Source: an uncultured Acidobacteriaceae bacterium (GTDB taxonomy: Bacteria > Acidobacteriota > Terriglobia > Terriglobales > Acidobacteriaceae). Taken from it: DNA of 64,000 nt. Positions 10,259 through 51,473 of the stretch are shown here, piece by piece. Below the pieces are notes generated by a model that was not told the DNA's origin, did no database searches, and worked only from the letters and a program-made list of their open reading frames with translations. How positions within the stretch are numbered: position 1 is the first letter of the stretch; each line of letters begins with the position of its first letter. The DNA is taken from positions 1,301 to 65,300 of the forward strand of contig CAVQDN010000022.1 of the NCBI GenBank assembly GCA_963711275.1, in the 5' to 3' direction. The position numbers and the translations under genes are program-made.

Positions 10259-11326
10259 ATGGTATCTACCAGCCGTTACCCCGTTTCGACCTTTCCAACT
10301 CTGGCCGGGACAATCACAAGAAAAACTTTCGCAGCATTCACAGCGCTACTTTTCACCGTCACCTGCATGGCGCAGGACACCGCTCAACCACCTTCACCGC
10401 ATGATCCACAGAGCAGCACGCAGCCACAGCGCCAGTCTTCCATCGGCACCGTCAGCGTCACGCTTCCCGTAGGAACCAAAATCCCGCTTGTCCTCACGCA
10501 CGACATCCGAAGCAAATCCATGCATCGCGGAGATCCCATCTACGCGCAAGTCAGCGCGCCCGTCGATTCCGGCAACCAGATGGTGATTCCGCCGGGAACA
10601 TTTGTGCAGGGCACGGTGGCCCGGCTGCAACAGAAGCGAGGCCGCGCCGAACTTCATCTACAATCGATGGCAATCACCTTTCCAGACGGTTCCGTCGCTC
10701 CTGTCTCCGGACCACTAACCCTGGAGAGTGATGAAGGCTACGCTTTGAAAGACCCGGGCGCAGGCCGGACGATCGGCTTCGTCGCCTTGCCTGCGGCCGG
10801 CGCGGGCCTCGGAGCTTTGATCGGTCACTCCCTCGCCAGTCCACAAAGCAGCACCATCACCAGTTCGCTTCCGCCCGGTTGCACAGGACCTCCACCGGGA
10901 TGTCTTTCGTCCAGCTTAAGCGTTCCTCCCAACAAGGGAGAAAGCACCGTGATTGGCTCCGCGGTCGGCGGCGCCATCGGACTGGTGGCTTCACTCACGC
11001 TCGTCGCCACGTCTAATAATTTTTTCCTGAACGTAGGAACGCCTGTCAACATGGTGCTGCAGCAACCTCTCTCGCTGCCGGAACCGCAGGCGGCAAACGC
11101 GGTTCAGGAGTCCATTCAACAGCCAGTCGCGGTGCAGCCTATCGCCAAACGTCCGTCACCGCCGCCGCCTTCTGTCAGCGATCACGGGACCTGCTATACG
11201 CCCGATACTCCAGGGACGCCGGACACGGTCATTCCGGGAGCCCCCGGACCTGATGGCGTACCAGGACCTTCAACCACGATACCCGGCATACCGGCAACTC
11301 CCGGCACGCCGTATCCGTGCCCTTAG
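10259..11326 (+). CDS. hypothetical secreted/membrane protein with Pro-rich C-terminus
   Basis: Long ORF with a signal-like FAAFTALLFTVTCMAQD, internal Gly/Ala hydrophobic segments and a PGTP-rich tail. No family recognised. Confidence 0.5.
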   Translation: MVSTSRYPVSTFPTLAGTITRKTFAAFTALLFTVTCMAQDTAQPPSPHDPQSSTQPQRQSSIGTVSVTLPVGTKIPLVLTHDIRSKSMHRGDPIYAQVSAPVDSGNQMVIPPGTFVQGTVARLQQKRGRAELHLQSMAITFPDGSVAPVSGPLTLESDEGYALKDPGAGRTIGFVALPAAGAGLGALIGHSLASPQSSTITSSLPPGCTGPPPGCLSSSLSVPPNKGESTVIGSAVGGAIGLVASLTLVATSNNFFLNVGTPVNMVLQQPLSLPEPQAANAVQESIQQPVAVQPIAKRPSPPPPSVSDHGTCYTPDTPGTPDTVIPGAPGPDGVPGPSTTIPGIPATPGTPYPCP

Positions 11327-16687: not shown

Positions 16688-19333
<2,646 letters not shown>

Positions 19334-31540: not shown

Positions 31541-31658
31541 CCCAGTAGTCATCCCCTCCTCCGTTTGACGCTACTCTCCCTTAGTCTTTACACTCAATCA
31601 ATGGCATGCGAACGGCGTGTTCCATGTCATTGGATAACCGGGCCCGTTCAGGCCGGAT

Positions 31659-32984
31659 GTGGCAGGTCAATCGGAAAGGGTCAAAGTGAGTCCCACAGAA
31701 ACAGTTGACGCCGCGAACGACGCGAAGAGAGACGGCGTCAAACGCGAGATTTCGGTCGAAATCCCAGCCGCCGAAGTCACTCGCGAGATGGAAACTATTG
31801 TCCAGAAATATCAGAAAGTGGCACGGCTGCCAGGCTTTCGCACCGGACACGTCCCCTCGTCCATCATCAAGCAGCGCTTCAAGGAAGACCTGAAGAGCGA
31901 CGTGGTTGAGGCCCTGGTCCCGCGCTACTTCCGCAAAGAGGCGGAAAAGCAGGGAATGATTCCGGTCTCGCAGCCGCGCGTCACCGATCTGCACATTCAT
32001 GACGGCGAGCCGCTCCGTTTCAAGGCCAGCTTCGAAATTCTGCCCGAGATCGTGGTCGAAGGCTACAAGGAACTTCGCGCCGACCATCCCGAAATCGTCG
32101 TAAAAGACGAAGAAGTGGAAGACGCGGTGAACAGCGTGCGCGAGCAGCACGCTACCTATACTTCGGTGGAAGGGCGTCCGCTGGCCGAAGGCGACTTCGC
32201 GCAGGCTTCCATGGACGGCAAGCCGAAAAACGGCGACGACAAGACGCAGCCCGTCCACATGGATGAAGTCCTGATCGAAATCGGCGGCAAAAATACAGTG
32301 CCGGAATTCACCGAGCACCTGCGCGGCGCCAACGCCGGCGATGAGCCGGAGTTCGAGGTCAGCTATCCCGAGGACGTCGCCGACAAACGCCTAGCCGGAA
32401 AAACATTCGTCTACAAAGTGAAGATTTACGCCATCAAGCAGAAGAATCTGCCGGAACTCAACGACGACTTCGCCAAGGAACTCGGCGAGTTCACCAGCCT
32501 CGATCAGGTGCGCCATCAGATCCGCGAAAACATGCAGGCGGAGCGCAAGCACGATGCCGAGCGCGAAGCCAAAGACAAACTGATGGCCGAACTGGTCAGG
32601 CGCAACGACTTTGAAGTGCCGGAGTCGCTGGTCGATCGCCAGATCGATCTGCGGCTGGAACGCGGCCTGCGAGCCCTCGCGGCGCAGGGCATGAAGATGG
32701 AAGATCTGAAAAAGATGGATCTCCCACGCTTGCGGGCGGGTCAGCGCGATCAGGCGGTGCAGGACGTCAAGTCGTCGTTGTTACTGGAACGCGTCGCGGA
32801 GCTGGAAAAAATCGAGGCCGGGGAAGACGAATTGAATCATGAGATCGAAGCCCTGGCCAGGCAGTCCAAACAGACTCCGGAAGCGGTCCGCGCTCGTTTG
32901 ACACAGGATGGGGGCCTCGATAGAATCCGAAACAGAATCCGCAGCGAAAAGACCCTCGACTTTTTGTATCACCAGTCCGCATAG
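31659..32984 (+). CDS. tig: trigger factor
   Basis: Full-length tig architecture upstream of clpP-clpX (..RLPGFRTGHVPSSIIKQRF.., PPIase-like middle, C-terminal arm). Alternative GTG start at 31686 has a better RBS. Confidence 0.9.
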   Translation: MAGQSERVKVSPTETVDAANDAKRDGVKREISVEIPAAEVTREMETIVQKYQKVARLPGFRTGHVPSSIIKQRFKEDLKSDVVEALVPRYFRKEAEKQGMIPVSQPRVTDLHIHDGEPLRFKASFEILPEIVVEGYKELRADHPEIVVKDEEVEDAVNSVREQHATYTSVEGRPLAEGDFAQASMDGKPKNGDDKTQPVHMDEVLIEIGGKNTVPEFTEHLRGANAGDEPEFEVSYPEDVADKRLAGKTFVYKVKIYAIKQKNLPELNDDFAKELGEFTSLDQVRHQIRENMQAERKHDAEREAKDKLMAELVRRNDFEVPESLVDRQIDLRLERGLRALAAQGMKMEDLKKMDLPRLRAGQRDQAVQDVKSSLLLERVAELEKIEAGEDELNHEIEALARQSKQTPEAVRARLTQDGGLDRIRNRIRSEKTLDFLYHQSA

Positions 32985-33097
32985 TTCACCGAGAATGACG
33001 CGGACCCTTTCGACCCTCCCCAGCAGGCTAAGCGTTGCGTCGGGGCGGAGTGTGGCAGGTGAATGTGAATAAGAACGATTCGAAAAACGATCCTCAT

Positions 33098-33694
33098 ATG
33101 ATGCTGGTACCGATGGTCATCGAGCAGACCGGGCGGGGCGAACGCGCCTACGACATCTATTCCCGGCTGCTGCGCGACAACATTATTTTCATCGGCACGC
33201 CGATCGACGACAACATCGCCAATCTGGTGATTGCCCAAATGTTGTTTCTGGCTCAGGAAGATCCGGAGAAAGACATCCAGCTCTACATCAACTCTCCGGG
33301 CGGCTCGATTACGGCCGGCATGGCGATCTACGACACCATGCAATACGTGAAGAATGACGTGATGACTCTGTGCGTGGGCCAGGCCGCTTCCATGGCGGCG
33401 TTACTATTGGCATCAGGCGAAGCGAAAAAGAGATTGGCACTGCCTAATTCGCGGATTCTAATACATCAGCCCTCGATGGGAGGCTTGTCGGGACAAGCCA
33501 CCGACATTGATATCCATGCCCGCGAGATTCTGCGTATGCGCGAGATTACAAACCAGTTGCTCTCCAAGCACAGCGGGCAGAAGCTGGACAAAGTCGAGAA
33601 AGACGTGGAGCGCGACTTCATCATGAACGCGCAGCAGGCTAAGGAATATGGAATCATAGACGATATCATCTATAAGACAGCAAAAGCTGTATGA
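33098..33694 (+). CDS. clpP: ATP-dependent Clp protease proteolytic subunit
   Basis: [64 protein letters not shown]. Confidence 0.92.
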
Positions 33695-33818
33695 TCTGCC
33701 TTCGCGCCTGACGGGAAGTTTGAGCGAAGCGGCACGGCCAGAAGAGGCTGAAAGATGCTGGGCCTGGCACGAAAATCAGGGGATCAGGCCGGGAAAAAGA
33801 TTCAAGGAGTAGAGCCGA

Positions 33819-35099
33819 GTGAAAACCAAGTCGGGCTCCGACGAGATTCTACGCTGCTCGTTCTGCCACAAGTCGCAGGACGCCGTAGCCAAACTGATTT
33901 CCTCGCCCAGTGATTATCCCCGCGCCTACATTTGCGACGAGTGCGTGGCGGTCTGCAACTCTATTCTTGAAGACGACCGCACGGCAACCCCTCAGGCTGC
34001 CAAACCCGACCAACTGCCCAAGCCCCAGGAAGTGAAGACCTTCCTCGATGAATACGTTATCGGGCAGGAGCAGACCAAGAAAAAGCTCGCGGTCGCGGTT
34101 TACAACCACTACAAGCGCATCTTCATGAACCGGCAGAAATCCGGCGACGGCATCGAACTCAGCAAATCGAACATCATGCTGATCGGCCCCACCGGAACCG
34201 GCAAAACCTTGCTGGCGCAGACTCTGGCCCGCATGCTCGACGTGCCCTTCGCCATCGTCGACGCCACCACGCTCACCGAAGCCGGCTACGTGGGCGAGGA
34301 CGTCGAGAACATCATCCTGAAGCTGCTGCAAGCGGCCGACGGAGATGTCAGCCGCACCCAGACCGGGATCATCTACATCGATGAAGTCGACAAGATTGGG
34401 CGCAAGGACGAAAATCCCTCGATTACCCGCGACGTTTCCGGCGAAGGCGTGCAGCAGGCGCTGCTGAAGATTCTCGAAGGAACCATCGCCAACGTTCCGC
34501 CGCAGGGCGGGCGCAAGCATCCCCACCAGGAATTCACCCCGGTGGACACAACCAACATTCTGTTCATTTGCGGCGGAGCCTTCGTCGGCCTCGACAAAAT
34601 CATCTCCCGCAGGATGGGCAAGAAGGCCCTCGGCTTCCGCAGTGGCGAAGAAGCCGAAAAGGACGAATCGGCCGCTGCGAAGAAGCGTACACAGGAACTG
34701 TTGACCGAGATTCAGCCGGAAGACCTGATCAAGTTCGGGCTGATTCCGGAATTTGTGGGACGCTTGCCCGTCGTAGGGATGCTGGAAGATCTCGACGAGT
34801 TCGCGCTCATTGAAATCCTGACCCGGCCGAAAAATGCCATCGTCAAGCAATACCAGCGGCTGTTTGAGTTCGAGAACGTACGGCTGAAGTTCAACGAGGA
34901 AGCTCTGCGGGCGATTGCCCGCCAGGCCATGGCGCGCAAGGTAGGGGCGCGCGGATTGCGCATGATTCTCGAAGAGCTCATGCTCGACCTGATGTTCAAC
35001 CTCCCCAGCCAGAAGAAAGTAAAGGAGTTCGAAGTGACGCGGGAGATGGTGGAAAAGCGTAGCGCCTCGTTCGCGACAGTGATGGAAAAGGCCGGGTAG
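33819..35099 (+). CDS. clpX: ATP-dependent Clp protease ATP-binding subunit ClpX
   Basis: Zinc finger [12 protein letters not shown], Walker [23 protein letters not shown]. Confidence 0.95.
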
Positions 35100-35105
35100 G
35101 AACCC

Positions 35106-35175
35106 GTCTTTGGCGTTCGTCCTTGGTCGTTGGCCTAGGGCAAATCGCATTCGCCAACGACCAAAGACCAACGAC
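35106..35175. repeat. hairpin built from GGTCGTT-type heptamers
   Basis: gtctttggcgttcgtccttggtcgttggc ... gccaacgaccaaagaccaacgac, starting 7 nt after the clpX stop. Confidence 0.8.
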
Positions 35176-35231
35176 TCTCGACGAAACGCGGTAGAATCAA
35201 TTAGAGTTTGCTGTCATTCCAGGGAGACTCA

Positions 35232-37614
<2,383 letters not shown>

Positions 37615-37670
37615 CCCACCGACGCCATCCTGACAGTCCGGCCAGCCCATCAGATAAGAGTGGAACGCAG

Positions 37671-38861
37671 ATGTCCACATCCAACCAGAGTCAGATTTTT
37701 TTTGAAAACGAGCCGGAATCGCTCCATCGACCGAGCTCAGGCCACGCGGACAACGGGAATCCTTCCCTCGCAGGAAATCAGCAACCTGATCGCTCGCGGA
37801 CACGTAAGCGCGTCGCCTGCAATCGAGCCCGAACATATCCAGCCTGCGAGTCTCGACCTGCGGCTGGGCGACATGGCGCACCGGGTTCGAGCAAGCTTTC
37901 TGCCCGGCCCGAACAGCACGGTCGAAGCGAAAATCAAAGAACTCCGCATGGCGCGCGTCGATCTCACCGCCGCGCCTGTTTTCGAAAAAGATTGCGTCTA
38001 CATAATCCCTCTCGTGGAAGAACTGAATCTGCCGGAAAATATTTCCGGGAAGGCGAATCCCAAGAGCACCACCGGCCGGCTCGACATTTTCACGCGCCTC
38101 ATCACCGACTACGGCACCGAGTTCGACAGCGTCCCGCAGGGATACAAGGGCAAACTCTACGCCGAAGTTGTCTCGCGCACTTTCACCGTCGCGCATTCGC
38201 GCGGGGATGAGACTGAGTCAGTTGCGCTTTGTGCAAGGCAGTCCGCGCTCCGGCGACAGCACGATCAAGGGCTTAGACCATGAGGAGCCTCTGGTCTACA
38301 TGGACGAAAGACACCCCGGCCAAGGCCCAGCTTCAGCGCGGCCTGCGCATCACCGTCAATCTCGAAGCCGCGGAACCAGGTGAGATCATCGCCTACAAGG
38401 CCAAGCGCTATGCTCCCGTGATCGAACTCGACCGGGTTGGTTATTATCCGACGGAAGAGTTCTGGGAAGTTCTTCACCAAAGCGCGAATAAGAGTCTGAT
38501 TCTCGAGCCTGGAGACTTTTATATCCTTGCGTCCCGGGAGCGCGTCCGCGTTCCCCCCGACTTCGCCGCCGAAATGGTTCCCTTCGATCCCGCCGACGGC
38601 GAATTTCGCATTCACTACGCCGGATTCTTCGATCCCGGCTTCGGCTACGGCTCCAGCGAGATCAAAGGCACTCGCGCTGTACTTGAAGTCCGTGCCCACG
38701 AGGTACCGTTCCTGATGGAACACGGGCAACTCGTAGGCCGCCTGAACTACATGCACCTGCTATCGCGCCCAGAAAAGATCTACGGCACGAATATCGGATC
38801 GTCCTACCAGCATCAGGCGCTGACCCTGAGCAAGCAGTTTCGCCGCGAACCCAAGGGCTAA
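37671..38861 (+). pseudogene. dcd: 2'-deoxycytidine 5'-triphosphate deaminase (long DCD family), frame-disrupted
   Basis: TGILPSQEI..IQPASLDLRLG..RVRASFLPG..KANPKSTTGRLDIFTRLI.., then ..RAGMRLSQLRF.., then ..FAAEMVPFDP..GEFRIHYAGFFDPGFG. Shifts at the T8 run 37696-37703 (if ATG 37671 is the start), near 38193 and near 38307. Confidence 0.75.
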
Positions 38862-42064: not shown

Positions 42065-42147
42065 TATGGCCCCCCCTTTGTAGAGCTTCACGATTTTTTC
42101 CCCGGGTGCTTTCGTTCAGAAGCGAAATCAGAACTGAGGAGACTTTC

Positions 42148-44133
42148 ATGAAAAAGGGGCTCAGCATCTCGCTCGCAGTTTTTTTTCGTTCGAAAATACG
42201 AGGCGCTTTCGCGGCTGGAATTCTACTGGTCCTCGCTATTGTTCCAACGGACGCCATCGCCCAGAGACTTTTCTACCGTTTGACTTCAATCGCCGATACG
42301 AAACCGGGGTTTCCCTGGGCGAATTTATCCCAGTTTCCCTGCCAGAACAGCTCCTCACGCGATGCCTTCGAAGCCCTTATGGTTGGCGATCTGGGTGTAG
42401 ACGGTATGTTCTCGCACCACGGAGTCGCTTCGTTCGATACTCTCGCAGACACTGGCCTGGGCGAATACGACTCCATCGGCTTGGACTGCACCATCAATCT
42501 GAACGGCACAGTCCTGTTCAGCGCTCTCAAAAAGGTGCAAGACGGCTATCAGACACTGCTTCTGCGTGGCGCCGCTGGCACTCAGCTACAGACGCTTCTG
42601 GCTACGGATGGAACCTTCGACGAGTTCGGCGGCTGGCAACTGAGCCTTCAGGGGACTGCCGTCCTACTCGCGGAGCGGCCAGATGGCAGCTATGTCATCC
42701 TGACCCAGGGCTCCGGCCCTCTCACCGGGCCGCAAAGAATCATTGCTGACAACCGGCCCACCAATTCGCCGTACACGCAATTCGGAAATGCTCCCTCCAT
42801 CAACAACAGCAACACGGTCGCATTTACGGTGGTCCGCAGGTCCGATGGCTCGAATGCCATCGTCACCATCGCCCAGGACGGCACGGTCACAAATCTGATC
42901 GACAGCACCGGACCATTCGCAGGCTTCTCCGACATCGATCTGAACGCGGAAGGTTCGCTCGCCTTCGACGGCGTGCAGTATGGAGGCTTGTGGGGAGTGT
43001 GGCGCCTTGATCCCACTGGCTCCAGCCCCGCGCTCACAAAAATTACCGACTCGACCCAGACCGGCTCTATAAATTTTACGGCCGTGTCCATCAATGATGC
43101 CGGACAGGTCGCGTATTCGTTCCGCGATCCGGATAATTTTGTCGGCACGGTAGGCATCGGCAATGGTTCGAGGTTCCATTCCGTGTTCGGTCCGGGGCCG
43201 ATCGTGCTCGGGCCCGGCGCCGCCGTCTTCGGCCGCATTGTTGCCTCCGCCGATATCGGCCGCGATTCGCTGAACAATTTCGGACAGATTGAGATGCACA
43301 TCGATTTCTACGACGGCTCACAAATGATCGCGCGCGCCGAGCTCGTCAATCCCTGGGCGAACATTGCCGTGGTTGCGGAACAGGCGTTCGCCTTGACGAC
43401 CGGAACCGGCAACCAGGCTGGTACGGGCACCACTGTCAGTCTGCCTCCAACACTTATGGTGCTCAGCTTCGATGCCACCTTCCTGACCGGCGAAGGCGAG
43501 TTGAAGGTTCAGCTCGACGATCGCCTACTGACGACCGTTCGGGCAAGCTCGCGCGGAGTTCGACAAAGGATCCGAATTCCCATCGACTTACGTCAGAAGA
43601 CTCGCTCGACTGCCCCACGCAAAGCGCAGGAGCTCAAGTTCGTCCTGGCCGGGGCCCCGGGCGTCGCTGCGCAGATTAGCAACATCAGTATTCCCGGAGG
43701 TAGATTGGATTCGAGGCGGCCTGACGCGAGAGTCCAATGGCACTTTAATACCCAGAGCGGCGGATGGGCCGGTCTCGTCAACGCGACGCGCTTCCCGGTC
43801 CAAATCAAAGTACTCGCGGAAGAGCCGCGCAACGAGGCACAGGCAGGTATCGCGCCGGTGGCGATCCTGAGCAGCGCAAGCTTCGATGCCACACGCGACA
43901 TCGAGCGCGACACGCTGAACTTTGCGGGCGCCCCCGTACGCCGCGAACCTGAAGCGAAAGGGGGCGACCGCCCAAAATGCGCCGAGCGCAACGTCAATGG
44001 CGACAAACGTCCCGATCTGGTTTGCGACTTCGGCTCGCCGGCTCCAGTAGCGGGTGGCGCGGCGCGCGTCCGCAACGCCACACTCGAGGCGATGACGCCC
44101 TATGGCTGGATGATTGAAGGGCGAGCCGACTGA
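42148..44133 (+). CDS. large secreted protein with NxxGxxAF-type tandem repeats
   Basis: Signal AAGILLVLAIVPTDAIA. Repeats INLNGTVLFSA, INNSNTVAFTV, DLNAEGSLAFDG, SINDAGQVAYSF. RBS GAGGAG before ATG 42148. Confidence 0.65.
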   Translation: MKKGLSISLAVFFRSKIRGAFAAGILLVLAIVPTDAIAQRLFYRLTSIADTKPGFPWANLSQFPCQNSSSRDAFEALMVGDLGVDGMFSHHGVASFDTLADTGLGEYDSIGLDCTINLNGTVLFSALKKVQDGYQTLLLRGAAGTQLQTLLATDGTFDEFGGWQLSLQGTAVLLAERPDGSYVILTQGSGPLTGPQRIIADNRPTNSPYTQFGNAPSINNSNTVAFTVVRRSDGSNAIVTIAQDGTVTNLIDSTGPFAGFSDIDLNAEGSLAFDGVQYGGLWGVWRLDPTGSSPALTKITDSTQTGSINFTAVSINDAGQVAYSFRDPDNFVGTVGIGNGSRFHSVFGPGPIVLGPGAAVFGRIVASADIGRDSLNNFGQIEMHIDFYDGSQMIARAELVNPWANIAVVAEQAFALTTGTGNQAGTGTTVSLPPTLMVLSFDATFLTGEGELKVQLDDRLLTTVRASSRGVRQRIRIPIDLRQKTRSTAPRKAQELKFVLAGAPGVAAQISNISIPGGRLDSRRPDARVQWHFNTQSGGWAGLVNATRFPVQIKVLAEEPRNEAQAGIAPVAILSSASFDATRDIERDTLNFAGAPVRREPEAKGGDRPKCAERNVNGDKRPDLVCDFGSPAPVAGGAARVRNATLEAMTPYGWMIEGRAD

Positions 44134-44340
44134 TTTGCGCCTGGAAATGGCGACTCGGACTGTCTGATCGCTGCCAATGTCTGAAGGACCATGAGGTCCA
44201 GTAAAGCGAGCTTTGATTCGGCCCGTCAGATCTCCTGCGGAAATGCCAAAGGAATATTCCGGGTCATCGTGGCTAATGAACCCCTCGCGCCCAGGAAATG
44301 AATCGCACCAATTTGCCAACCTCCAACGATCGTTCGCAAC

Positions 44341-44432
44341 CAAGTTTAGCGTGGAGGGATCTTCAAGTGGCGAAAAATCGTCACACTAACCGACAGGGGT
44401 TCTGATTGGAATCGCCTGGTTACGCCAACTGG
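44341..44432 (+). repeat. X-box composite repeat upstream of the TlpA-like gene
   Basis: caagtttagcgtggagggatcttcaagtggcgaaaaatcgtcacactaaccgacaggggttctgattggaatcgcctggttacgccaactgg. About 80 percent identical to 46144-46232. Confidence 0.7.
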
Positions 44433-44606: not shown

Positions 44607-45687
44607 ATGCGTTCGGTCTCGATTGGAGTACTTGTCGTTTGCTGGGCGGCACTTCTTTTTGCGCAGGACTCAGCGGCGCCTCCAATGGATAAGAAGGCGC
44701 AGAAGAGCTATCAGCAGGCACAGGAGCAGTTACAGAAACGCGATCAGCGGTTGGCGCTTTGGTACTTTCGCGATGCCAATAAGCAGGACGGCGGGCATTG
44801 CCTCCCCTGCCAGGAGCAAATGGTGCGGATCGGCCTCGTGATTAAGGACTGGAAAGCGGTCGAGGATGGCGCATCGGGAATGGCCCCGGAGGTACACGAA
44901 CCAAAGCAGCAGGCCGTTGCGCACTACTATCTCGGCCTGGCCTTGCTGAACGAAGGCGGCAACAATCATCAGAACGATTTGCTCACCCACGCTCACGACG
45001 AATTTTCGAAAGCAACTTCCTTGTACTCGCAGTTGGCCGACGTCCTCTTCGAGGACGGGAGAGCGCTGGCACAACTGCACATGGATGACGAGGCTAAGGC
45101 TGAGTTTCAGAAGTATGTTGCGATGACGCCGGAAGGGCAGTTCAGACATCGGCGAGCGCTACAGTTCATCGGCAAACCGGAACTCGCCCGCGCCAATATG
45201 GTTCCGGAGTTTGCGATCGTGACTGCCGACGGCAGGCGCATCTCGCCCAAAGACCTGGCCGGTAAAGTTGCCCTCGTTTATTTTTGGGGATCGTCGTGCG
45301 AAACGTGCATGCGGGCATTCCCGCGCTTGCGCGAGATCACGAAGAAGTTCGAGAACCAACCGTTCGTGCTTCTGAGTGTGAGCATCGATTACAACCCGGC
45401 GGTGTGGCGTTCTTATAGAGAAGAATAATGTCCCCGGGCTGCAGTATATCGACGGCTTCGACGGCCAGCTCGCACAGGCCTTAGGCGTGGAGGTTCATTT
45501 CAACACCAGCGCCGACAATCCGGTCGCAGGAGTCTGGCAGTCCTCCTATGGATTCAAAGAAGATGTTCCCAAAACTTTCACGATTGATGCAGATGGCGTA
45601 CTGCAGATGGACAAAGTGTCAGACTCGCTGGATGCCAGGTTGCAAGAGATGATCGCCCGCGGGGAGCAGAGCGCAGCGAGCCAGTGA
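44607..45687 (+). pseudogene. secreted TPR-like + TlpA/redoxin-like thiol:disulfide oxidoreductase, one frameshift
   Basis: Signal MRSVSIGVLVVCWAALLFA. Helical-repeat N-terminal half. GKVALVYFWGSSCETC (WxxC..C thioredoxin-fold motif). The frame shifts near 45410, then continues ..NNVPGLQYIDGF...PKTFTIDADGVL to TGA 45685-45687. Confidence 0.65.
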
Positions 45688-46050: not shown

Positions 46051-46140
46051 GTTGGCGAAAATCCCCATTTCACTGATTGACCCGAATCGAACTCCACGCG
46101 AGTTCACAACAGGTCCGCGATTCGCAGGTGCAACACCTGT
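46051..46140 (+). repeat. about 90-nt direct repeat, left copy (upstream of the DsrE-like gene)
   Basis: gttggcgaaaatccccatttcactgattgacccgaatcgaactccacgcgagttcacaacaggtccgcgattcgcaggtgcaacacctgt. Confidence 0.75.
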
Positions 46141-46143
46141 AAC

Positions 46144-46232
46144 CAAGTCTAGCGTGGAGGGATTTTCAAGCGGCGAAAAATCGTCATCACACTCACCGCG
46201 GGATTTTGGGTGCTATGGCTGTTTACGTCAGC
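46144..46232 (+). repeat. X-box composite repeat upstream of the DsrE-like gene
   Basis: caagtctagcgtggagggattttcaagcggcgaaaaatcgtcatcacactcaccgcgggattttgggtgctatggctgtttacgtcagc. Confidence 0.7.
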
Positions 46233-46288
46233 ATCGCCAAGGTATACATTCGTCCGCAGCTTACGGCTCGGGATATTCCACGGAGGAG

Positions 46289-46752
46289 ATGATGATTCGA
46301 CGCCAGCTACTTACCAAAATCCCACAGTTGCTTGGCTTAGGTCTGCTCGGACTCGGGGCCGCCAATGCGCAAGAAACGACGGCACGTAAACCGCTGAAGA
46401 TCATGATGAAGAGTGCATGGGGATCGGATGACCCCACTCGGGCCTCTTTCGTTTCGCGCATGGCCTTGCGTTGGCCGACGCAGGTCACGAGGTGCAGATT
46501 TTCCTCACCGGCGAGGCTACCTACCTCATGCGGAAAGCAACCGTTTCGCAGATTTTCCCGGTCGGCTGGCCGCCGCTGAGCGAAATGCACGAGAAGGTCG
46601 TCGCGAAGCACATTCCGGTCTTTTCTTGAGGGGCCTGCTCCCGTGCCCGTGGGGTTACGGAAATAGATCTGAAGGATTGGGGAGCAAAGTTCGGCACTCC
46701 CGCAATTTTCGTATCGCTGGTCGAGTGGGCGGACCGCATCATCTCCGAATAG
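46289..46752 (+). CDS. Tat-signal DsrE/YchN-like protein with in-frame TGA (candidate Sec) and one frameshift
   Basis: MMIRRQLLTKIPQLLGLGLLGLGAANA (twin-Arg signal). KIMMKSAWGSDDPTRA, then after a 1-nt shift at C-run 46443-46444 ..FAHGLALADAGHEVQIFLTGEATYLM...AKHIPVFS-TGA(46627-46629)-GACSRARGVTEIDL...ADRIISE*. Confidence 0.55.
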
Positions 46753-46771
46753 CGGCGCACAGAGACCGGCG

Positions 46772-46862
46772 TGATTGGTGAAACATCCCATAACGCTCCT
46801 TGACCGCATCGAACTCTGCGCGAGTTCACTATAGGTCCGCTATCGCAGGCGCAACACCTATC
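46772..46862 (+). repeat. about 90-nt direct repeat, right copy (downstream of the DsrE-like gene)
   Basis: tgattggtgaaacatcccataacgctccttgaccgcatcgaactctgcgcgagttcactataggtccgctatcgcaggcgcaacacctat. Confidence 0.75.
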
Positions 46863-48934: not shown

Positions 48935-49918
48935 ATGGCAACCACCACAACCAAGCCGGACTTGGACGTAACTTCTCCGTTTACTGGGGTTAGCGTCTCT
49001 GCCTGGCCGCGAGAGCAGGCCGCTTCCGGCCTCTCCGAGAATCCCGGCGAAGATTCCGCGAAGCCATCGCAACTCGATGCCCTGCATGCCTTGCTGGCGT
49101 TCTCGGCGCTGCATAATCAAGTCCGCCGCCGCAAAGCTCTGGCCGCGCGGAACAATGGTTTCGACGCCGCAGCTCCAACACAAGAGTTTGATAAAGACGA
49201 GCAGTTCGTTCTCGATGAAGTGCTGCGACTGGTCGCCGAGCGTGCGGTCGCTATCACGGGCGCGGACGGCTTGGCCATTGCCCTCGCGGAAAATAATGAA
49301 ATCGTCTTGCGGGCCGCAGCAGGCAAAATCCGCCCCAGCGTCGGCGCGCGCATTGATCGCGATTCCGCATTCACCGGCGCTTGCTTCCGCTCGGCCCAGG
49401 TCGTGAGCTGCGACGACACCGAGATGGACCCTCGGGTAAACCTGCAAGCCTGCCGCCAGCTGGGAGCGCGTTCCATGGTCGCGGTGCCGCTCTGCGGACG
49501 CCGCCGCGTAATTGGTCTGCTGGAAGCTTTCTCCTCGTGGCCCTTCGGCTTCAACGAAAGCGACATTCGCAATTTGACTCTGCTCGCTGAATTGGTATTA
49601 GGAGCGCTTAAGCCGGAGGATGAAGACCGTTTCGCGCAATCGGCGCAGGCAGCGGCCAGCCAGCTGGAATCGCCTGCGCACCTGCGGCAAACGCCTGCCG
49701 CAATCGAAGCGTCACGCGCGCTCACTGAATCGTCAGCCCGGGTTGTTCCCGTGGCTGCCGAAATAGTGGTTCAGAAATCCGTCGAACAAAGCCGCCAAGA
49801 ATGTTACCGGGCAAACTGGGAAGAAAAGTGGCGCCGAGCTGATCGAGGCCAAGGTCGCTTCCGCTCCGGCAGCAGCCACTGTCAACAGATCCGCGACCCG
49901 GCTGTCTCCGAAACTTGA
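48935..49918 (+). CDS. GAF domain protein (probably the N-terminal part of a GAF-TM-AMIN-amidase; see findings)
   Basis: GAF-like core [25 protein letters not shown]...VGARIDRDSAFTGACF...ARSMVAVPLCGRRRVIGLLEAFS. The last 40 or so codons read as Arg/Ser-rich nonsense, while the +1 frame is open and protein-like from 49767. Confidence 0.65.
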   Translation: MATTTTKPDLDVTSPFTGVSVSAWPREQAASGLSENPGEDSAKPSQLDALHALLAFSALHNQVRRRKALAARNNGFDAAAPTQEFDKDEQFVLDEVLRLVAERAVAITGADGLAIALAENNEIVLRAAAGKIRPSVGARIDRDSAFTGACFRSAQVVSCDDTEMDPRVNLQACRQLGARSMVAVPLCGRRRVIGLLEAFSSWPFGFNESDIRNLTLLAELVLGALKPEDEDRFAQSAQAAASQLESPAHLRQTPAAIEASRALTESSARVVPVAAEIVVQKSVEQSRQECYRANWEEKWRRADRGQGRFRSGSSHCQQIRDPAVSET

Positions 49919-50012
49919 TGCGAGAGCCGCGACCGCAACTGCTGCCGCACCAAGAATCACCGCCGCTTCCTCGCAAGCCGAAAAGGGACGGCCCTTCGCT
50001 CTGCTTCTGCTG

Positions 50013-51473
50013 GTGTGCGTCGTGATTGCCGCTGCGTTTGCCGGCGGAGTCTGGTGGAAGTTGAAGACCGTGCAGTTGGGCAGCGCCATGGTTGACGCGG
50101 AAAAACTCGACGAGGAAAACGCCCGCGAAGAGAATATCCAGAACGAAAAAATTGCGGCCAAACCCTTTGGAGAGAGTGCGCAGAACGCTGTTCCACCATC
50201 GCCTGAAGCAAATTCCGCAACCGCCGCGAACTCCAGTTCAGACCTGATTTCCGATTCCAGCCAGCCCACCAATTCGCCTGCAACCGCGCAGGAGTTGTCG
50301 AAGTTTCCGCGAGTCACCGGAATACGGCACTGGTCTTCCGTCGATTCCAGCACCGTGGTTCTCGATCTCGAAGATCAGGTGCAATACGAAGCGCACCGCC
50401 TGGCCGGCCCGGAGCGCATTTATTTCGATTTGCGCGATACCCAACTCGCCAACGACCTGATCGGCAAGGCGATGGATGTGGGCGAGACGCTGGTCAGCCG
50501 GGTCCGCATGGCGCAGCCCGTGGCGGGCATGACGCGCATTGTTCTGGAAACCAAGGCCAACTCAACCTTCTCCGTCAGCCTGGAACCGAATCCGTACCGC
50601 CTCGTCGTGGAAGTGCGCAAGGTGGGCGCGACTCCGAAAGCCGCAGTGAATCTGTTCCCCAACACTCCAGCGGAGAAGAGCAAGCTGGCCATCGTGATTC
50701 CTCCGCCCGGCAAAGAAGATTTGCAGCTGCGGACGCGCGTCCCCAAAATGCGCATCGTGGTCGACGCCGGCCACGGCGGATGGGATCTCGGAACGGTAGG
50801 CCGCCGCGGCTTGCTGGAAAAAGATCTGGTCCTCGAAATCGCGCAACGCCTGGGCAAGCTGCTCGAAAGCCGGCTGGGGATGGAAGTGATCTACACCCGC
50901 CAGGACGACAACTACATTCCTCTCGACGAGCGCGCCAGCATCGCCAACCAGTCGCAGGCCGACTTGTTCGTCTCGGTGCACGCCAACTACAGCGACCTGC
51001 CTTCGGCGCGCGGCGTGGAAACCTACTATACAAATTTCTTTTCGGCGCCGGGGTCGAAAGAGGCTGGTCCAAGAGAAGCCGGCCCAAAAGAAATTGGCTT
51101 TAGAGATGTTGACGCTCGTTCGAACGCCAGCGGCGCCAGGAATCTCGTGACCCCCACGCTTTCGCCCGCCGAACTGCACGACCGCATCGAGCAGTCGCGC
51201 CGGCTGGCGGCCAGTGTGCAGCGGTCGCTTTACGGCACGCTGTCGGTGCAAAATCCCGGCCTGCGCGACCGCGGCATCAAAGAAGCCGGATTCGTCGTGC
51301 TCACCGAAAGCGCGATGCCTGGAATCCTGGCCGAAGTCTCCTTCGTCAGCAGCCCCACCGACGAGCAAAAACTCCGCAGCGACGGCTACCGCGAACAAAT
51401 CGCCGAAGCGCTGTACAAAGGCATCGCGCGCTATGCGGCAAGTTCGCATGCGGTGAAAGTGGCGGCGCGGTAG
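50013..51473 (+). CDS. amiC: N-acetylmuramoyl-L-alanine amidase with TM anchor and AMIN domain
   Basis: TM LLLLVCVVIAAAFAGGVWW. AMIN (VTGIRHWSSVDSSTVVLDL...TRIVLET...YRLVVEV). Amidase_3 (IVVDAGHGGWDLG...DLFVSVHAN...GFVVL..S.MPGILAEVSF.S). The frame is open upstream to 49767 with no ATG/GTG/TTG before 50013. Confidence 0.8.
   Translation: MCVVIAAAFAGGVWWKLKTVQLGSAMVDAEKLDEENAREENIQNEKIAAKPFGESAQNAVPPSPEANSATAANSSSDLISDSSQPTNSPATAQELSKFPRVTGIRHWSSVDSSTVVLDLEDQVQYEAHRLAGPERIYFDLRDTQLANDLIGKAMDVGETLVSRVRMAQPVAGMTRIVLETKANSTFSVSLEPNPYRLVVEVRKVGATPKAAVNLFPNTPAEKSKLAIVIPPPGKEDLQLRTRVPKMRIVVDAGHGGWDLGTVGRRGLLEKDLVLEIAQRLGKLLESRLGMEVIYTRQDDNYIPLDERASIANQSQADLFVSVHANYSDLPSARGVETYYTNFFSAPGSKEAGPREAGPKEIGFRDVDARSNASGARNLVTPTLSPAELHDRIEQSRRLAASVQRSLYGTLSVQNPGLRDRGIKEAGFVVLTESAMPGILAEVSFVSSPTDEQKLRSDGYREQIAEALYKGIARYAASSHAVKVAAR

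Follow-up and report, generated by a model that had tools for sequence, protein, structure and literature searches.

Does the in-frame TGA of a small acidobacterial gene encode selenocysteine (Sec), or does it end a short protein or a decaying gene? The question is raised by a locus in a 64-kb stretch of DNA from an uncultured Acidobacteriaceae bacterium (contig CAVQDN010000022.1; the whole stretch is hereafter called the window), in which a gene of the DsrE/YchN family is interrupted both by a frameshift and by a TGA. A first-pass annotation of the window had proposed a candidate selenoprotein here, and this proposal is now supported by the conservation of the TGA, by cysteine in the same column of relatives, by a coding-type pattern of substitution downstream and by a covarying hairpin. 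Measured against the comparative standards usually applied to selenoprotein genes of bacteria, the candidate is unusually clean, and the comparisons strongly support reading the TGA at 46627-46629 as a selenocysteine codon in a small, probably exported protein of the DsrE/YchN fold. The explanation as a whole, namely a UGA-encoded Sec in the U-G-A-C centre of a DsrE-fold protein exported by a twin-arginine translocation (Tat)-type signal, directed by a SECIS (selenocysteine insertion sequence) and with the frameshift as an assembly error, is in our judgement quite probable. The features on which the argument turns are the following:

46289-46752, plus strand: DsrE/YchN-family gene with one frameshift and one in-frame TGA, recognised by Pfam PF02635 and by identity to relatives.
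46627-46629, plus strand: in-frame TGA, the putative selenocysteine codon, also TGA in 66 of 80 GTDB representatives and in 7 metagenome contigs.
46627-46638, plus strand: U-G-A-C motif, which is CGAC or CGVC in the Cys forms.
46630-46752, plus strand: the C-terminal 40 codons and the TAG stop, translated only if the TGA is decoded.

The first frame, from the ATG at 46289, reads MMIRRQLLTKIPQLLGLGLLGLGAANAQETTARKPLKIMMKSAWGSDDPTRASFV and is nonsense thereafter, and the second frame reads ...FAHGLALADAGHEVQIFLTGEATYLMRKATVSQIFPVGWPPLSEMHEKVVAKHIPVFS up to the TGA at 46627-46629, the residues just before the TGA being ...EKVVAKHIPVFS. That the TGA is followed by 40 in-frame codons and a TAG at 46750-46752, as first noted, was confirmed in the sequence, and these codons read GACSRARGVTEIDLKDWGAKFGTPAIFVSLVEWADRIISE. 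Once repaired, the product has 154 amino acids (aa) from the ATG at 46289, or 153 aa from a second ATG at 46292, which is the start as in relatives. TGA is also the commonest ordinary stop in the window, where it ends 10 of the 23 well-supported genes, guaA and clpP included; any recoding at 46627 would thus be site-specific and not part of a general reassignment.

A protein search returned 5,724 relatives, and relatives occur in at least 410 GTDB species. In all, 87 loci were scored. A scan of species-representative (GTDB) genomes gave 80 loci, mostly in metagenome-assembled genomes (MAGs) of Terriglobia/Acidobacteriota, from both short-read and long-read assemblies. The alignment of homologues suggested in the first-pass annotation as a check gave TGA at this codon in 66 of the 80 species representatives, a cysteine codon (TGC/TGT) in the same column in 13 and TGG in 1. 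The same TGA was present in the 7 independent metagenome contigs as well. Since the TGA-bearing set includes Illumina assemblies, the TGA is not a sequencing error. Counted from the TGA or Cys codon, the stop comes after 40 codons in all but one of the 87 loci (86 of 87, the Cys forms among them); the odd one out is a frameshifted locus, L046, that is described below. Downstream of the TGA, codon positions 1 and 2 are conserved at about 0.9-1.0 and position 3 at about 0.4-0.6 (70 distinct TGA-type sequences), a pattern which shows that the sequence beyond the TGA is translated.

The proteins themselves follow the same division. The closest relatives in the protein search (P0081, P0089, P0101, P0102, P0104 and P0119) are 91-96% identical to the window protein, and all are exactly 112 aa long and end at the TGA; the contigs behind these 112-aa forms derive from soil metagenomes independent of one another, and each of them that reaches the stop has TGA there, with the same conserved stretch of 40 codons beyond it. 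The full-length relatives examined are 147-157 aa long and carry C-G-A/V-C at the TGA column, apart from one with arginine (P0002), and the full-length Cys form P0001 is 87% identical to the window protein. The second cysteine of the U-G-A-C motif (46636-46638) is invariant among the aligned homologues.

That gene callers annotate 112-aa proteins would agree with a TGA that is a plain stop or a nonsense mutation, the 112-residue product being real or the gene decaying with residual similarity downstream, and the unremarkable energy of the single-sequence hairpin fold (see below) would agree with it also. Yet a nonsense codon would not last in 66 species with the 40 codons behind it still constant in frame and length and still showing coding-type substitutions, and a 112-aa product would be left without the last strand and helix, the invariant second cysteine and the RARG segment. 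Neither would this account explain why synonymous sites in the hairpin described below are frozen in the TGA forms only. We find it hardly credible.

In a rough neighbour-joining tree, the Cys forms stand at no fewer than five separate positions among the Sec forms, and three of them retain the hairpin, which suggests repeated Sec-to-Cys replacement. Two other residues were seen at this codon: P0002 has arginine (VFSRGVCSRARG), one base from TGA, and locus L022 has TGG (Trp) at its positions 10337-10339 and lies inside a Cys-type clade. Both could be inactive variants or sequencing errors. Five TGA-type loci (L023, L040, L067, L087 and L088) are titled Binatus, Dormibacterota, Methylomirabilota or Verrucomicrobiia and not Acidobacteriota, labels that reflect either horizontal transfer or mis-binned contigs.

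Immediately beyond the codon, the TGA forms share a structure within the coding sequence:

46641-46660, plus strand: SECIS-like hairpin of 20 nt, defined by third positions, covariation and RNAalifold.

The stem consists of 8 bp with a one-base bulge, uses the upstream copy of CCCGTG and begins 11 nt after the UGA. Its 5' arm lies at 46641-46648, a GUG loop at 46649-46651 and its 3' arm at 46652-46660, the bulged base being 46655 in the window copy; numbered from the U of the UGA, the 5' arm spans positions 15-22, the loop is G23 U24 G25 and the 3' arm spans positions 26-34 with one unpaired base. Among 60 distinct sequences, G23 is invariant and U24 nearly so. In an independent run, RNAalifold gave the helix at 46641-46660 as the only consensus structure, with no conserved lower stem.

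Third codon positions behave differently in the two classes across this segment. From +12 to +35 their identities in the TGA forms are 1.00, 0.63, 0.97, 0.99, 0.97, 0.66, 0.99 and 0.93, whereas in the 13 Cys forms they are 0.92, 0.46, 0.77, 0.38, 0.54, 0.62, 0.85 and 0.92, that is, a mean of about 0.89 in the Sec forms against about 0.68 in the Cys forms. The full stem is present in 58 of the 60 distinct TGA sequences versus 3 of the 13 Cys sequences. Position 18, the wobble base of an arginine codon, pairs with position 31 as U-A, A-U, C-G or G-U, and with position 30 as G-C; the pair 21:27 is C-G and is switched to G-C in loci L067 and L068. Pairing was found in 94-96% of alignment cells, and none of 500 shuffles reached the observed pairing or covariation score. 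When the partner strand was slid as a control, pairing was at most 74%.

The hairpin thus defined is not the one first proposed. The earlier 4-bp hairpin CCGT/ACGG is present in the sequence, but it lacks covariation, and 17-19 relatives have it disrupted; as CCGU/ACGG in the RNA, it has its 3' arm in common with the supported 8-bp stem. A longer-range stem, GCUCCC/GGGAGC, that appeared in the single-sequence fold was set aside, being without RNAalifold support.

The rule derived from Escherichia coli fdhF calls for an upper stem-loop that lies 11 nt beyond the UGA and carries G23/U24 in its apical loop (PMC8659212). The hairpin in this gene has the same geometry, starting 11 nt after the UGA inside the coding sequence and presenting G23/U24 in its apical loop, and it differs from the fdhF SECIS in its loop, which is the triplet GUG, or CGUGG when the closing pair is taken as open.

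Decoding of the UGA as Cys or Ser, through a Sec-like tRNA(Cys) working with a SelB-like factor or through an acidobacterial suppressor allo-tRNA, has also to be weighed at this point. SelC*-type tRNA(Cys) is known as a possible opal suppressor, suppressor-like allo-tRNAs have been reported in Acidobacteria (Mukai et al., PMC5389517), and Cys is tolerated at the TGA column, as the 13 Cys forms show. Nevertheless, the SelC* tRNAs come from anaerobic Firmicutes, Thermodesulfobacteria, Nitrospirae and Proteobacteria and not from Acidobacteria, and most of the allo-tRNAs tested were inactive or had other anticodons (PMC5389517). The hairpin, moreover, fits the canonical SelB-type SECIS geometry, and Terriglobia with canonical selenoproteins are documented, among them Occallatibacter riparius (Acidobacteriaceae), which uses Sec and has FdhA, AhpD-like and deiodinase-like selenoproteins (PMC12013277). 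Recoding to an amino acid other than Sec appears very unlikely.

The protein that results from decoding the TGA belongs to a recognisable family. After repair, and when the TGA is replaced by Cys, it matches the Pfam DsrE/DsrF-like family PF02635 over residues 51-152 (E=1e-9, 39 bits versus a cutoff of 22.7), and all full-length homologues have a precomputed PF02635 match. In NCBIfam, no specific model recognises the protein, DsrE2 being reached at E=0.1 only. The AlphaFold2 model of P0001, the Cys form 87% identical to it, has the DsrE/YchN alpha/beta fold with a predicted local distance difference test score (pLDDT) of 76, and about 90 around the motif. A Foldseek search of this model against the PDB returned YchN (1jx7), DsrE (2hy5_A), the putative sulfurtransferase DsrE (3pnx), DsrF, TusD (2d1p_A), 3mc3 and 2qs7, with probabilities of 0.94-1.0; a profile search of PDB sequences brought no gain beyond YchN. 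In the model, the Sec/Cys residue lies between a strand (114-116) and the N-terminus of a helix (118-123), and the second cysteine follows one turn on. The JGI label 'predicted peroxiredoxin' is a legacy source name: PF02635 was the only match, with neither AhpC/TSA nor Redoxin, and membership of the peroxiredoxins was rejected.

The N-terminus carries a further conserved feature:

46289-46369, plus strand: signal peptide MMIRRQLLTKIPQLLGLGLLGLGAANA/QE, probably Tat, with the twin arginine at 46298-46303 and an A-x-A end.

The twin arginine is invariant in 9 of 9 and in 30 of 30 aligned homologues. In many relatives, RRxFL leads into a hydrophobic stretch rich in glycine and then an AxA site, and the signal in the window reads RRQLL...ANA/QE. 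From the invariant RR, the RRxFL of many relatives, the hydrophobic stretch and the AxA site, it is argued that this is probably a Tat signal, with predicted export to the periplasm.

The first-pass annotation had named DsrE-like proteins as a predicted selenoprotein family, and this proved correct. DsrE-like proteins of PF02635 with UxxC are well established among the predicted selenoprotein families and were found in Desulfovibrio vulgaris and in data from the Sargasso Sea (PMC1088965, PMC1794560, PMC9312934, PMC13188914; the UxxC family itself in PMC1088965, PMC1794560 and PMC13188914); it was predicted by Kryukov & Gladyshev (2004) and Zhang et al. (2005, 2006) and has been known since 2004-2005. 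WP_014524487.1, a reference protein of 107 aa with UGKC that is given in the supplement of PMC12013277, aligned Sec to Sec with the family of the window gene (hhalign probability 88%, E=3e-6, about 28-35% identity). The two share the Pfam family, the U-G-x-C motif, a tail of roughly 38-40 residues beyond the Sec and, immediately downstream of the UGA, a SECIS hairpin. However, the known DsrE-like selenoproteins, which originate in anaerobes or marine samples, have about 104-107 aa and lack a signal peptide, whereas members of the subfamily described here have 147-157 aa and a conserved twin-arginine signal, come from soil Terriglobia and carry Sec in the majority (66 of 80 species). The window gene is thus an exported (by prediction), Acidobacteria-wide member of an already known kind of selenoprotein, the DsrE-like UxxC proteins.

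Among solved structures, YchN (1JX7) is the best match in both sequence and structure, with an alignment at E=0.012 and about 22% identity. The proposal that the TGA column corresponds to the first cysteine of the YchN CxxC agrees with this alignment to the E. coli protein, in which VPVKLCKTCTDGRGIS aligns with IPVFS[TGA]GACSRARGVT, placing C-K-T-C-x-x-G-R-G on U-G-A-C-S-R-A-R-G. YchN differs in being cytoplasmic and in having Cys, not Sec. DsrE and TusD (2HY5, 2D1P) also have the same fold as the window protein, but they function as parts of heterohexamers whose other subunits, DsrF/H or TusB/C, come from adjacent genes, whereas the window gene has no adjoining partner genes and its product has an extra second cysteine, in a CxxC-type pair. 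The third comparison is with YedF (TIGR03527), which has a CGxC redox motif in its DsrE-like domain and is linked to selenium metabolism (PMC5322559); the motif of the window family is [U/C]-G-[A/V]-C. YedF differs in having a SirA/TusA-like N-terminal domain, in being cytoplasmic and in not being a selenoprotein. Membership of YedF was rejected for the window protein, which has no SirA-like domain and no match to the NCBIfam YedF model.

The second interruption of the gene, the frameshift, was located by DNA alignment:

46452-46454, plus strand: T-run one base short (TTT, not TTTT), the source of the frameshift, placed by alignment with six close relatives.

These six relatives read GTTTTC or GCTTTC at this point and keep their frame, whereas the window reads GTTTC at 46451-46455; the protein of the relatives runs across the site as ...DPTRASFVFAHGLALADAGHEV. 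An extra C at 46443-46444, as first suggested, does restore the frame, but the homologues place the missing base in the T-run. Frame breaks in the DsrE-like gene were confined to two loci out of 87, namely the window and L046. The latter is the closest species-representative locus (95% identity) and comes from a long-read soil MAG; near its position 10380, a 1-nt insertion (GACCTG to GACCCTG) just 3' of the hairpin breaks the C-terminal frame, a probable second run-length error in a DsrE-like gene.

Similar breaks occur elsewhere in the window. The leucyl-tRNA synthetase (LeuRS) gene (16691-19333, minus strand) is in four frame pieces, with junctions near 18718, 18447 and 18070, and in the syntenic metagenome contig L090 (6272-8869) it is an intact open reading frame (ORF) of 866 aa. 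The Lon protease gene (35205-37573, plus strand) falls into three ORFs that meet at the CCCGGGCC run near 36445 and at an A5 run (GAAAAAG) near 37010. A dCTP deaminase gene (37615-38861, plus strand) forms two ORFs, for the N-domain and the C-domain, with the break near 38280, and in a TlpA-like gene (44607-45687, plus strand) thioredoxin-like profiles match the first half only, the frame switching after a T-run near 45415. A homopolymer origin for all of the indels in the window holds in part only: the junctions in the DsrE-like and TlpA-like genes and the two in Lon lie at runs of T, A or G/C, and the three in LeuRS lie away from long runs.

No free-living bacterium can do without LeuRS. As the frameshifts in LeuRS and Lon cannot all be real in a living cell, the indels of the window are best read as assembly errors, so that the broken frame of the DsrE-like gene does not count as a sign of decay. 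The window is itself core chromosome and not a mobile element, given its tig-clpP-clpX-lon cluster (31638-37573, plus strand) together with guaA, leuS, murB and the gene for DAHP synthase elsewhere. The simple decay entertained in the first-pass annotation was weakened, as this frameshift is not in other loci and essential genes in the window are also broken. Most likely, the frameshift at 46452-46454 is an assembly error and not gene decay.

The selenoprotein family might still be genuine and the window copy a recent pseudogene, with a real 1-nt deletion at 46452-46454 and no full protein expressed. The frameshift does stand in the sequence as given, the Cys, Trp and Arg found at the Sec codon in some relatives show turnover of the locus, and the gene context is variable and repeat-flanked. 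Against these points, the copy is, bar one base, 92-95% identical in DNA to intact relatives, with both the SECIS and the downstream frame intact; LeuRS (3 sites) and Lon (2 sites) carry similar frameshifts in the same window, and the long-read MAG locus L046 has another 1-nt error in its DsrE-like gene. A pseudogene in this genome seems improbable to us, and an intact selenoprotein gene with one misassembled base remains the preferred reading.

Several observations nevertheless weigh against that reading. For the machinery of Sec decoding, ARAGORN and Rfam were run on the window, ARAGORN on 88 loci, and tblastn with SelA, SelB and SelD probes (the E. coli proteins, plus the Treponema SelD of PMC12013277). 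The 64-kb window and 1.6 Mb of sequence flanking the related loci yielded neither selA, selB or selD nor a tRNA-Sec, and the tblastn matches were to ThiL-like and IF-2 genes only. The bulge of the hairpin is on the 3' arm (column 29 or 31) and not at the 5'-arm U17 of fdhF, and the covariation comprises few independent events, L067 and L068 being sister sequences. The fold energy of single sequences was no better than that of shuffled ones (z -0.24 and +0.84), a measure that is uninformative here. No Tat-signal match was obtained in Pfam or NCBIfam (E<=1). The Sec column falls on the persulfide-carrying Cys78 of TusD in a weak alignment, which is a lead only. Lastly, the missing base in the DsrE-like gene might be a true feature of this genome.

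The same searches touched two further points. Genes for AhpD-like, deiodinase-like and FdhA selenoproteins were not found in the window or the related loci, and a 101-nt tRNA-Arg (tcg) called by ARAGORN at 50308-50408 (minus strand) was rejected as a false positive, as it lies inside an N-acetylmuramoyl-L-alanine amidase gene (49767-51473) and had no Rfam match at E<=10.

From these comparisons we infer Sec insertion, export and chemistry as follows. The UGA at the first active-site Cys codon would be decoded as selenocysteine, giving a U-G-A-C centre, while SelB carrying Sec-tRNA(Sec) would bind the in-gene SECIS hairpin with the ribosome at the UGA. The folded and probably oligomeric protein, of about 126 aa when mature, would then pass to the periplasm, most likely via Tat. 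There, a selenol with a thiol three residues later might form a selenenylsulfide, or might carry a sulfane sulfur or a selenium atom, at what would be the site of the persulfide-bearing Cys in DsrE/TusD.

As gene callers end the protein at residue 112 and label it 'hypothetical', an entire subfamily is wrongly annotated in MAGs and soil metagenomes. The value of the locus thus lies in correcting a systematic annotation error and in adding a widespread, by inference exported, selenoprotein to the Acidobacteriota and specifically to Terriglobia, which are among the most abundant soil lineages; no concept is changed, since DsrE-like UxxC selenoproteins and fdhF-type SECIS elements were already established. 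Acidobacteria were credited with 3 selenoprotein families in 2006 (PMC1794560), and the present distribution suggests that selenium use in Terriglobia is commoner than the few families listed for the phylum imply. The natural series of Sec, Cys, Trp and Arg at one catalytic position of the DsrE fold should also be useful in approaching the function of CxxC-type DsrE/YchN proteins. A wider picture can be offered only tentatively, and we think it possible rather than probable: Sec would be ancestral and prevailing in an exported, probably Tat-dependent DsrE-fold protein of most Terriglobia; Sec decoding would be common in the dominant soil Acidobacteriota; a cassette of about 600 bp with leader, gene and SECIS would move between contexts; and the U-G-x-C centre, like the CGxC of YedF, would serve periplasmic trafficking of sulfur or selenium and not generic thiol redox.

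The surroundings of the gene comprise three further features:

46219-46288, plus strand: upstream block kept with the closest relatives (leader, likely promoter region), from DNA alignment.
46058-46140, no strand assigned: left copy of a direct repeat of about 80 nt that brackets the gene block.
46780-46862, no strand assigned: right copy of the same repeat, starting where homology to relatives ends.

DNA homology to relatives starts in the upstream block at 46219-46288 and stops near 46806; a strict sigma-70 scan upstream of the DsrE-like gene gave no site. Relatives with 90-95% DNA identity in the gene have nothing in common with the window outside 46178-46806, and their neighbouring genes all differ. 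The repeats of about 80 nt (about 85% identity over the core) bracket exactly the block of some 600 bp shared with the closest relatives. The gene and its leader may move as a unit. No further copies of the repeat were found in the window, in the related loci or in a pattern scan of metagenomes, where five matches to a 19-base core were attributable to chance, and an attC-like (integron) or repetitive extragenic palindromic (REP)-like nature was rejected, since folding gave no convincing hairpin common to both copies.

The TlpA-like gene next door had been taken to form a periplasmic redox pair with the DsrE-like gene. This pairing did not hold up across the related loci, as a weak thioredoxin-like match near the gene was found in 1 of 87 only. 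No neighbour family is common to more than 9 of the 87 loci within about 4 kb, and neither dsrF/dsrH nor tusB/tusC partners were found there. A 675-aa ORF at 42106-44133 (plus strand) has an N-terminal hydrophobic segment and no Pfam match at E<=0.001. In relatives, the neighbours of the DsrE-like gene include an IS110-family transposase directly upstream (L001, 55-1119; L002, 272-1501) and, in the flanks of L001-L005, a SPOUT methyltransferase, a peptidase M28 and MgtC. Within the window, a second repeat of 46 nt and 93% identity occurs at 44338-44383 and 46141-46186, upstream of the TlpA-like and the DsrE-like gene, respectively.

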